DNA of 49,509 nt, counting the filler, from Circinaria calcarea (Eukaryota): assembly GCA_051942165.1 (NCBI GenBank). It is 2 parts of 2 records of this genome, joined end to end, with 100 filler letters (N's around TTAATTAATTAA, not from the genome) between each part and the next. Parts side by side here need not be neighbours in the genome. Positions count along the whole stretch, not along the records: positions 24,863 to 49,509 come from JAVECS010000103.1; 1 more part is not named here. One strand, 5' to 3'. Below the pieces are notes generated by a model. The model searched no databases. It saw only the letters and a program-made list of their open reading frames with translations, and was not told where the DNA came from. Shown here one piece after another: positions 28,526 to 31,474 of this stretch; within the stretch, counting starts at the first letter, position 1, and each line of letters starts with the position of its first letter. The translations under genes and the position numbers were made by a program.

Positions 28526-29299
28526 TTATGCCACGGCATGCTGCTGAGCTGGCGTATCCATGGCCGCATTCATATCGACCTCCACCTTCGGCATCCTCGA
28601 ACCGGTTCCTGATAAATCCGTCTTCTTGGCGTTCGGGTTCTTGCTGTAGTAGTTTGAGATGGCGGACTTGATCGCGTCTTCTGCCAACATTGAGCAATGC
28701 ACTATATACAATGATTAGCCTCCGACTGTTTATTGTCGCCTTCGGTCCTTTCGGCATAACATACACTTCACAGGCGGCAAGCACAACTCTTGCGCAATCT
28801 CCGTATTCCGGATCCTCGCGGCGTCTTCCAGTGTCATTCCCCTCACCAGCTCGGTCAAGTAGCTACTGCTTGCAATAGCGCTGCCACATCCGAAAGTCTT
28901 GAATTTGACGTCGCTGATTGTGTTCGAATTCGGATCCACCCGGATCTGGAGTTTCATCACATCTCCACACGCTGGCGCTCCCACAAGACCAGTACCGACG
29001 TCTGCGTCTGTCTTTGACATCGAACCAACGTTGCGGGGTTTGCTGTAGTGGTCGAGCAGTAAGAGGAATGTTAGCTACGGGTTCTAGGCATCGTCGTAAT
29101 AGATGATGAGAGCCAAAGGCGAGCACTTATTAGAATGAATGTAAGGGGAAGATGACTTATCTTTCTCATGATAGCTTCTTCGTGCACCGACCACTGAGGT
29201 CGCCACTACTTGAGATCGTGGAAGAATGCTTGGTCGGACAGGAGCGGCGACGACTTTGCTGGCTGCACGGGGTACTCTGGTAAGGACTCTCTTCATCAT
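28526..29299 (-). CDS. ISU1: Mitochondrial Fe-S cluster scaffold IscU/Isu1 (3 exons; first intron AT-AC)
   Basis: Arg-rich presequence, YHEK|VLDHYSKPRNVGS, GLVGAPACGDVMKLQI, FKTFGCGSAIASSS, LCLPPVK|LHCSMLAEDAIKSAI. Confidence 0.96.
29059..29160 (-). other. Non-canonical AT-AC intron (102 nt) in ISU1
   Basis: Minus strand AAA G|ATAAGT...GCTAAC-ATTCCTCTTAC|TG CTC GAC CAC TAC; removal restores K-V-L-D-H-Y exactly. Confidence 0.85.
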
Positions 29300-29742: not shown

Positions 29743-31474
29743 TCACATGTCCGCAAGCATATCCTCGTCAACGCCAAAGCTATCGTTCATCGTATGCAGC
29801 TCTCCACCCGAGTTTTGCCTATTCTCCCTGGCCTCCTCGCTCTTCCTCGCCTTTCGTGCCCACTCCAAATATGAAGTACTCAGCTCAAGCTTTCGATCTG
29901 CTTCCTTAATGTGACTTATCAGTTTTGTCGTGTCGGCCGTCTGCTTCTTCAGGTCGCTATACTGCTGCGCTTCCGAGCGAGCGAGCGGGCCTGAATGGGT
30001 CGAGGACGCAAACCGAAGGACGGGCGGCTTGGCAGGATCTGAGGATTGGGTAATGGTAGCGTTCAAGTGACCATCCCGAATCATTGATGATAGATAGTGC
30101 TCCGTTTCGGCATAGTCGTCAGGACGAGGAGACGTGCGTCGCGCAACTTCGGGGATAGAGAGAGCTGCGAAGGTTTTCCCGAGCCTCAGGATGGCAAAGC
30201 GTCGTAAAGCATCTAGCACTTGAAGGACTAATCCAGTGTTACAGTCCTAAATTCGGTGCTCTGTTAGTACTCTACCGGCCTAATCAACAATCCGATAGTA
30301 GCGTACATGTTGCCATAGCTCATGACCTGCCCGAGCTTCATCGTGTAGTCTATGGGCAATTCCTGCCCTGAAGACTTCAGCAAGCGCCTCGTATGCCTTC
30401 GCAGTAGCTCGATATATTTTAGCCGCTTGGTGGTTGGTGTGAGGCGGCATAGGCAAAGACTAATTGATTCTCCATTAGTATCTTGCCTTTTTGTCAGCCA
30501 GGCATGTAAACTCACCTTGCCTTCAAGCAGTAACCCAACCAAGACGTATTTCTTGTATGCCTCCACTTGTACCATGCTAACGGTGTTGTTTGTTGGTGTC
30601 GCGATGACAATCTCCAAGAAAAGTAATGCTCGCTCCCAATTCTTAACCCCTAAGTACAGCATTGCACCATAGAGAAAGTATTTCAGGTAATCTTTGTACA
30701 CCAGCTTATCTGATAGCCCAGACCCGGTGGTAATGAACGTTGAACTGGTATCATGATCTGAACAGGGTAAAGGGAGGCTCAAACTTTTGTCCGAGGGTGA
30801 GGGAAAGTGGAAGATGTCTTTGTCGAGGATTGGGAGAGCGGAGCTGAAAGCTCTAGCTGAGAGACAGAGGTGGGCAAAGAGAACGTGTGACGATGTGAAG
30901 CATGATGAAGAGGGATCAAGGCGTAGTATAGCGTTTCTGATCGGCTGAATTGCTATCTCAGGCTGCACTATATTAGAGACGAAACTTAAATTGCAATTGG
31001 AGGACTTACTGTGGAAGCTGTATATGCCACTCGAGCCGCAGCGTCTATGAGCCGTCTGAATTCGTGCCCTACGTATCTGACCTGGATTGGATCGAAGTGT
31101 TCCATAAACTTGAGCATCTTGCGCCATAGCTCACTGGAAGGAGAAAAGGCTTTGAGGTTAGCAGCGACAGATTGTTTGCTGTTCTGTGCATTTTCGATAT
31201 GAGCCAAGAGAGTATGGAGGTATGGAAGAGTATTAATCGATGGATTAAGTACCTATATACCTATTAGCTCTATGTTTGGGACTTCAGGCTAGAGCGTACA
31301 GACATCCAGGAGGTCATCTCCACTGGACATTCCACTCGTAAGCTTACTGGCGCTTGTGTGATTCAAAAGCTGAACCAAAGCGCGTATCTGCTTATCATAT
31401 TCGATGTCAGGCAGCGGTTGTGGTGGTGGGGGGTGCGGAGGGAATGTTAGTAGGTGAGCTAGGAGTTCATCCAT
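29743..31474 (-). CDS. CSN3: COP9 signalosome subunit 3 (PCI domain), multi-exon
   Basis: FDPIQVRYVGHEFRRLI, AILRLDPSSSCFTSSH, YFLYGAMLY, VSMVQVEAYKKYVLVGLL, and a PCI-type C-terminus LGKTFAALSIPEVA...MIRDGHLNATI. Confidence 0.85.

Follow-up and report, generated by a model that had tools for sequence, protein, structure and literature searches.

The ISU1 locus of Circinaria calcarea

The stretch of DNA analysed here (49,509 nt, hereafter the window) carries, on its minus strand at 29299..28526, a gene of three exons for the iron-sulfur (Fe-S) cluster scaffold protein ISU1/IscU, the spliced product of which is 202 amino acids long (Table 1). Exon 2 alone matches the Pfam profile NifU_N (PF01592) at E 1e-38, covering positions 7-102 of the 127 in the profile, and it also matches the solved chains of yeast Isu1 (5t0v, E 3.8e-44) and human ISCU (E ~1e-40). 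Because the profile match starts only at position 7, about six upstream residues are needed, and these are supplied by exon 1. The segments GAPACGD, FGCGSAIASSS and LHCSMLAEDAI, which we take to be the conserved cluster-ligand motifs, are all present (3/3) in the spliced product, and the first two align with solved ISCU.

A CSN3-like gene (COP9 signalosome subunit 3; PF22788, PF01399) adjoins ISU1 upstream, at 29746-31474 on the minus strand. It has four short GT-AG introns, and its stop codon lies ~440 nt from the ISU1 ATG. The product of its last exon is 100% identical to an NCBI-listed Circinaria calcarea MAG protein, which places the window in the Lecanoromycetes.

Intron 1 of ISU1 begins with AT and ends with AC. 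On the gene strand, the intron and its flanks read AGC TAT CAT GAG AAA G/ATAAGTCATC...GTAGCTAACATTCCTCTTAC/TG CTC GAC CAC TAC, with a short pyrimidine stretch 3' of the GCTAAC motif. Excision yields a product that reads ...RRSYHEK-V-LDHYSKPRNVGS..., in which the segment ...SYHEK-V-LDHYSKPRNVG... runs across the junction. A first-pass annotation of the sequence had proposed just such an AT-AC intron, with YHEK-V-LDHY restored by its removal and an in-frame TAG encountered upon its retention; the coordinates and the sequence agree with ours, and translation of the frame gives the same stop codon.

Table 1. Features of the ISU1 gene, in positions of the window.
Feature	Position	Strand	Description
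ISU1 exon 1	29161..29299	-	ATG at 29299; presequence; last codons SYHEK, followed by the G that opens the split Val codon
ISU1 exon 1, RNA cover	up to 29320/29373		reached by contigs of a relative
ISU1 intron 1	29059..29160	-	102 nt, phase 1, AT...AC; exactly skipped in the relative's RNA contigs
Intron 1 5' splice site	29155..29160	-	ATAAGT, the U2-type consensus with G1 changed to A
Intron 1 branch motif GCTAAC	29070..29075	-	presumed branch A at 29071; 12 nt between this A and the 3' end
Intron 1 3' terminal dinucleotide AC	29059..29060	-	from the sequence and the RNA junction; AC also in L001, L005 and L006
In-frame TAG upon intron 1 retention	29084-29086	-	frame translation
ISU1 exon 2	28765..29058	-	TG completes the Val codon; LDHYSKPRNVG...LPPVK; NifU_N core
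ISU1 intron 2	28702..28764	-	63 nt, ordinary GTATGT...CTAAT...TATAG; skipped in RNA contigs X1-X4
ISU1 exon 3	28526..28701	-	begins LHCSMLAEDAIK; stop codon TAA at 28526-28528

Intron 1 in RNA and among competing splice models

RNA across the 29161/29058 junction had been named in the first-pass annotation as a check, and the exact join was found. In three of three metatranscriptome runs, all from one study of biocrust, contigs of 800, 674 and 991 nt join 29058/29161. The 102 nt between these positions are skipped with no positional ambiguity; the ends are GT..AT on the plus strand, equivalent to AT..AC on that of the gene, and the shorter flank of the join measures 124-213 letters. The same contigs also join 28701/28765, the boundaries of intron 2, whereas the cover from a further run (X1) is limited to the junction of intron 2 and portions of the two exons that flank it. 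The contigs come from a close relative with ~94% exon identity, 15-18 of the 294 letters of exon 2 being different, so that the join is one seen in the relative's RNA; no run contains this strain itself (best share of sampled words 0.07). The intron 1 junction is thus used in the mRNA of a close relative. The nearest protein match, P0010 (Logan contig, 991 nt), has the sequence ...RRNYHEKVLDHYSKPRNVG.

The contigs with spliced intron 1 have depths of 90.8, 11.3 and 19.2 in the three runs. They leave 29084-29155 uncovered, which is no sign that retained transcripts are absent; contigs are no measure of retention and drop rare variants. Two other joints, 28463>28528, which spans 66 letters, and 28924>29161, which spans 134 and has one side of only 21 letters, were rejected as splicing events; in both, a divergent stretch is replaced in contigs of other organisms.

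Could the transcript of this strain use a GT-AG junction elsewhere, or could the AT and AC be two base errors of the assembly? DNA reads of the strain are absent from the runs, and canonical models with an open frame can be drawn on paper. We enumerated all single-intron models with GT-AG, GC-AG, AT-AC, AT-AG or GT-AC ends and an open frame from the ATG. This gave 420 in-frame, stop-free models (70 GT-AG, 70 GC-AG, 90 AT-AC, 84 AT-AG and 106 GT-AC). They were scored with a profile built from the first 135 residues of seven of the nine non-fungal-type (bacterial-type IscU) protein matches, the long fused models P0002 and P0003 being excluded; fungal gene models thus have no influence on this profile. 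The highest score, 159.3 bits, went to the AT-AC model 29160-29059, followed by a second model at 152.5 bits, and the best canonical model reached 149.9 bits. The AT-AC model 29160-29059 is also the only one among the 420 to restore YHEKVLDHY. None of the 140 canonical models (70 GT-AG and 70 GC-AG) contains both YHEK and VLDHY, and all of them score at or below 149.9 bits. The earlier statement that no GT-AG pair restores YHEK-V-LDHY thus stands, in this sense only; open-frame GT-AG models do exist (for example, with an acceptor at 29075), albeit with conserved residues deleted or replaced.

Conservation of the AT-AC ends and their fate in annotation

A metagenome scan with exon 2 kept 80 loci, of which seven were read; the other 73 show 63-74% identity. 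Three of the seven are fungal genomic copies with the intron (L001, L005 and L006), three are intron-less and transcript-like, and one (L007) is bacterial, with iscU beside iscS. The comparison of intron 1 across Pezizomycotina that had been suggested at the outset rests on three further genomic contigs, and all three have AT...AC at the same place: they read CATGAGAAAG/AT...CTAAC...AC/ at the identical phase-1 position. L001 (93% amino acid identity) has an intron of 105 nt with the donor ATAAGT, GAGAAAG/ATAAGTAACC...AAGCTAACATTCCCCTCAC/TGCTCGAC. L005 (88% amino acid identity) has one of 128 nt with the same donor, GAGAAAG/ATAAGTTGCC...CAACTAACTCCCACAAAC/TCCTAGAC, and L006 has one of 90 nt with the donor ATACGT, GAGAAAG/ATACGTAGTA...TAGCTAACATGTTTCCCTCCAGCTGCAC/TTCTCGAT. 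The downstream exon of L006 is 99% identical to the ISU protein of Terfezia boudieri (Pezizomycetes). All four genomic copies (the window, L001, L005 and L006) contain (A/G)CTAAC, and in all four retention leads to a premature stop codon or a frameshift. Outside the donor, the CTAAC motif and the terminal AC, the interiors of the four introns do not align and have no element in common.

The Terfezia-like copy has peculiarities of its own. Its intron (L006:1409-1498) contains an AG that is in frame and precedes the terminal AC by 6 nt (...CCTCCAGCTGCAC/TT). P0124, which is Terfezia-like and stems from a short Logan contig, reads YHEKVLDHY, which suggests that an AG of the L006 type is bypassed for the AC; if true, the choice of the 3' splice site would here be dictated, in a natural setting, by the first base of the intron. 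L006 also carries, at ~1590-1665, one more GT-AG intron of the ordinary kind (GTAAGG...CTAAT...TGCAG), which interrupts the cluster-ligand motif GAPAC/GDVM and which the window, L001 and L005 do not have. The desert truffles Tirmania nivea and Kalaharituber pfeilii are listed with two distinct ISU proteins each (P0125/P0129 and P0126/P0128), and the scaffold gene appears to be duplicated in part of the Pezizaceae.

Annotated proteins carry a further trace of the AT donor. Among the best 120 protein matches to exon 2, 74 read YHE[KR]VLDHY, 25 read YHEK-D...LLDHY, 12 lead from another N-terminus into ...LLDHY, and nine are of the non-fungal type. The read-through form YHEK-D means that the split codon is GAY (Asp) and not GTN (Val), which implies an A at position 1 of the intron. 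The residue after the D is K in 18 of these 25 proteins, N in four, and M, R or E in one each, which fits ATAAG, ATAAY and similar donors; many of them also contain QLT, corresponding to CAGCTAAC in frame. At the other end, 37/37 mis-joined proteins have in front of LLDHY a residue (A, S, P, L, T or V) for which a codon with A as the third base exists, a pattern consistent with ...AC/T, although Leu cannot tell C from T.

By hand count, 47 fungal matches bear an organism name. The junction is joined correctly in 18 of them, 22 read into the intron, and seven have replaced or truncated N-termini, so that 29/47 mishandle intron 1; the expectation of the first-pass annotation that gene predictors would mis-annotate it is borne out. 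A second search added models of Terfezia boudieri and T. claveryi that start with MRKI, which is cATGAGAAAGATA in another frame, as well as read-through forms from Coniosporium apollinis, Byssothecium circinans and Cirrosporium novae-zelandiae (Xylobotryomycetes). Models from the lichens and earth-tongues Lignoscripta, Lambiella, Loxospora, Candelaria, Geoglossum and Trichoglossum start only at an internal Met.

The AT donor is documented in Lecanoromycetes, Dothideomycetes, Xylobotryomycetes and Pezizomycetes. Its presence in these four classes suggests that it arose near the base of Pezizomycotina, where, judging from the sequences, the AT-AC arrangement was probably already present. The protein sample is biased in that it makes an AT donor visible only where annotation failed, and the 74 correctly joined proteins (from, for example, Xylariales, Exophiala, Rasamsonia and Lachnellula) are compatible with AT-AC, GT-AG or intron-less genes alike. 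For Sordariomycetes, Eurotiomycetes and Leotiomycetes, where the data covered proteins only, those listed are correctly joined.

These results leave hardly any probability for assembly errors or for a GT-AG junction elsewhere. The same AT and AC recur in three independent genomic contigs, an A at position 1 is implied by 25 independently annotated proteins, the relative's RNA contigs join the exact positions, and no canonical model keeps YHEKVLDHY. An artefact is effectively refuted.

Splicing and persistence of the AT-AC intron

Most AT-AC introns of animals and plants are removed by the minor (U12-dependent) spliceosome. Could this also be the case for intron 1 of ISU1? Its termini and a branch motif only 12 nt from the 3' end would fit. 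The U12 branch site is TCCTTAAC, located about 10-15 nt from the 3' end of the intron. However, the best U12-type branch match in intron 1 is an imperfect one (three mismatches) at a distance of 82 nt from the 3' end, and nothing like TCCTTAAC is found near that end. The donor ATAAGTCA departs from the U12 consensus /ATATCCTT at five of eight positions, so that the U12-type donor /(A or G)TATCCTT is lacking as well, whereas the donor of intron 1 shows 0/6 mismatches to /ATAAGT, the donor consensus given for type II AT-AC introns in the accessible text of PMC5029451. With AT and AC ends, this donor and the junction found in the relative's mRNA, intron 1 has the attributes of a U2-type (type II) AT-AC intron. 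GT-AG introns nearby have an equally short distance from branch to 3' end: read by eye, intron 2 and the four CSN3-like introns are built alike, with CTAAC or CTAAT shortly before YAG, and the latter four have the donors GTAAGT, GTGAGT or GTACGC.

The lineage of the host argues in the same direction. Ascomycota and Basidiomycota are reported to have no convincing minor introns and to have lost most minor snRNAs (PMC10639083, with PMC2846911 in agreement, as far as the accessible text of both goes). An Rfam scan of the 49,509-nt window gave no family at the gathering score, which has no bearing on snRNAs elsewhere in the genome. Removal of intron 1 by the minor spliceosome is accordingly scarcely conceivable. 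The first-pass annotation had read the donor and branch site as U2-type and not U12-type, and had taken the host to belong to a lineage without a minor spliceosome. The former is upheld by the mismatch counts and the position of the branch motif, and the latter by the phylum-level literature just cited together with the placement of the host in the Lecanoromycetes.

Intron 1 of ISU1 is, therefore, very probably a genuine AT-AC intron of the U2 type (type II), removed constitutively by the major spliceosome. Judging from its motifs and from experiments published for other species, it would be an ordinary fungal intron save for its first and last bases. The donor ATAAGT should still be able to pair with U1 and U6 at positions +2 to +6. 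At exon ligation, the usual non-Watson-Crick contact between the first G and the last G would be replaced by a compatible pair of a first A and a last C. Such ends could also persist in the absence of any function. Reversion to GT-AG takes two changes, and the GT-AC or AT-AG intermediates would be poorly ligated; since both changes would be needed, with defective single intermediates in an essential gene, the pair of ends may be locked in.

The type II class of AT-AC introns is already known, and intron 1 of ISU1 is a genuine, ancient and rare instance of it. Animal examples include SCN4A and SCN5A in human and TAF2 in both human and Drosophila (Sheth et al. 2006, PMC1557818, accessible text). 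The same text counts 24 type II introns among about 610,000 surveyed, kept in orthologues over long times, and lists U2-dependent AT-AC II introns as functional in human (15), mouse (6) and fly (3), with none in worm or Arabidopsis. It mentions fungal examples as hypothesised only for xylanase genes. Like the animal introns, intron 1 combines AT...AC ends with an otherwise U2-type /ATAAGT donor; unlike them, it resides in a lineage reported to lack the minor spliceosome and in the gene of an Fe-S scaffold, and its dependence on the major spliceosome is what we infer. With the U12-type AT-AC introns it shares the terminal dinucleotides, but neither the /ATATCCTT donor nor the TCCTTAAC branch site.

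Two further systems are close to the ISU1 intron. In double mutants of yeast and mammalian introns, reportedly engineered by Parker and Siliciano in 1993, Chanfreau et al. in 1994 and Scadden and Smith in 1995, the first base is A and the last base is C. The ISU1 intron resembles these, from which the mechanism proposed above is drawn, in having G1 changed to A and the last G changed to C, two changes that rescue each other at the second step. In contrast to such laboratory constructs, it is natural and has been kept in at least four ascomycete classes. The other system is the nested AT-AC intron of S. cerevisiae RPL30, a by-product of 1-2% whose 5' site does not resemble /ATAAGT (Gould et al. 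2016, PMC5029451, accessible text). Here, too, AT-AC ends are spliced in an ascomycete that has no minor spliceosome; the ISU1 intron, on the other hand, has the consensus type II donor, and its removal is the only route to a functional protein.

Could the unusual ends serve as a regulatory throttle? The AT-AC ends might slow ligation or make it conditional, in which case retained transcripts would meet a stop codon and be degraded, and the supply of the Fe-S scaffold would be tuned, for example, to iron status. The first-pass annotation had put this idea forward, calling the intron probably inefficient and one that could act as a post-transcriptional throttle on Fe-S biogenesis. It is true that an essential gene has retained these unusual termini in no fewer than four classes, that retention disrupts the frame or introduces a stop in 4/4 genomic copies, and that, according to the accessible text of PMC1557818, a G1>A change in yeast and human pre-mRNAs is rescued when the last G is changed to C, "although less efficiently" than splicing with G at both ends. 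However, premature stops upon retention are normal for fungal introns, and the two-step lock-in accounts for the conservation without a function. The splice signals alone are conserved among the four genomic introns, the interiors having no shared element, and the assembled form of the RNA is spliced in all three runs at depths of 11-91, with the proviso that contigs drop rare variants. Within the literature searched, which excludes subscription journals, nothing links ISU1 or IscU to AT-AC introns or to regulated retention in fungi: AT-AC is not mentioned together with Isu1, and together with IscU it is mentioned only for human pseudoexons. A search on AT-AC and Pezizomycotina returned no such intron, as judged by the listing. 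We found no support for inefficient splicing or for a throttle and consider a regulatory role quite improbable.

Another question is where the AT-AC ends come from. They may be a fossil from the time when Dikarya lost the minor spliceosome and the major one would have taken over an ancestral AT-AC intron of the U12 type, located at this old phase-1 site ahead of the IscU core. The internal signals of the intron would then have shifted to the U2 type, while the termini, changeable only as a pair, would have stayed frozen. We regard such a descent as unlikely. If it were true, an intron with the /ATATCCTT donor would be expected at the same position of ISU1 in those Mucoromycota, Zoopagomycota and chytrids that have a minor spliceosome. 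In the one supplementary file of PMC10639083 that was available, the terms ISCU, NifU and 'iron-sulfur cluster assembly' do not occur.

Whatever the origin of its ends, the intron has a practical consequence, as an essential Fe-S scaffold is mis-modelled in most of the organism-named annotations sampled (29/47). The faulty models contain an inserted, intron-derived peptide or have a lost or replaced N-terminus, the conserved YHEKV segment included, and allowing one AT-AC junction can correct them. Furthermore, the ISU1 intron, which is probably several hundred million years old, may offer a clean system for studying the contact between the first and last bases of an intron in exon ligation. 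It would also provide a test of whether paired non-canonical ends are kept by epistatic lock-in or by function.
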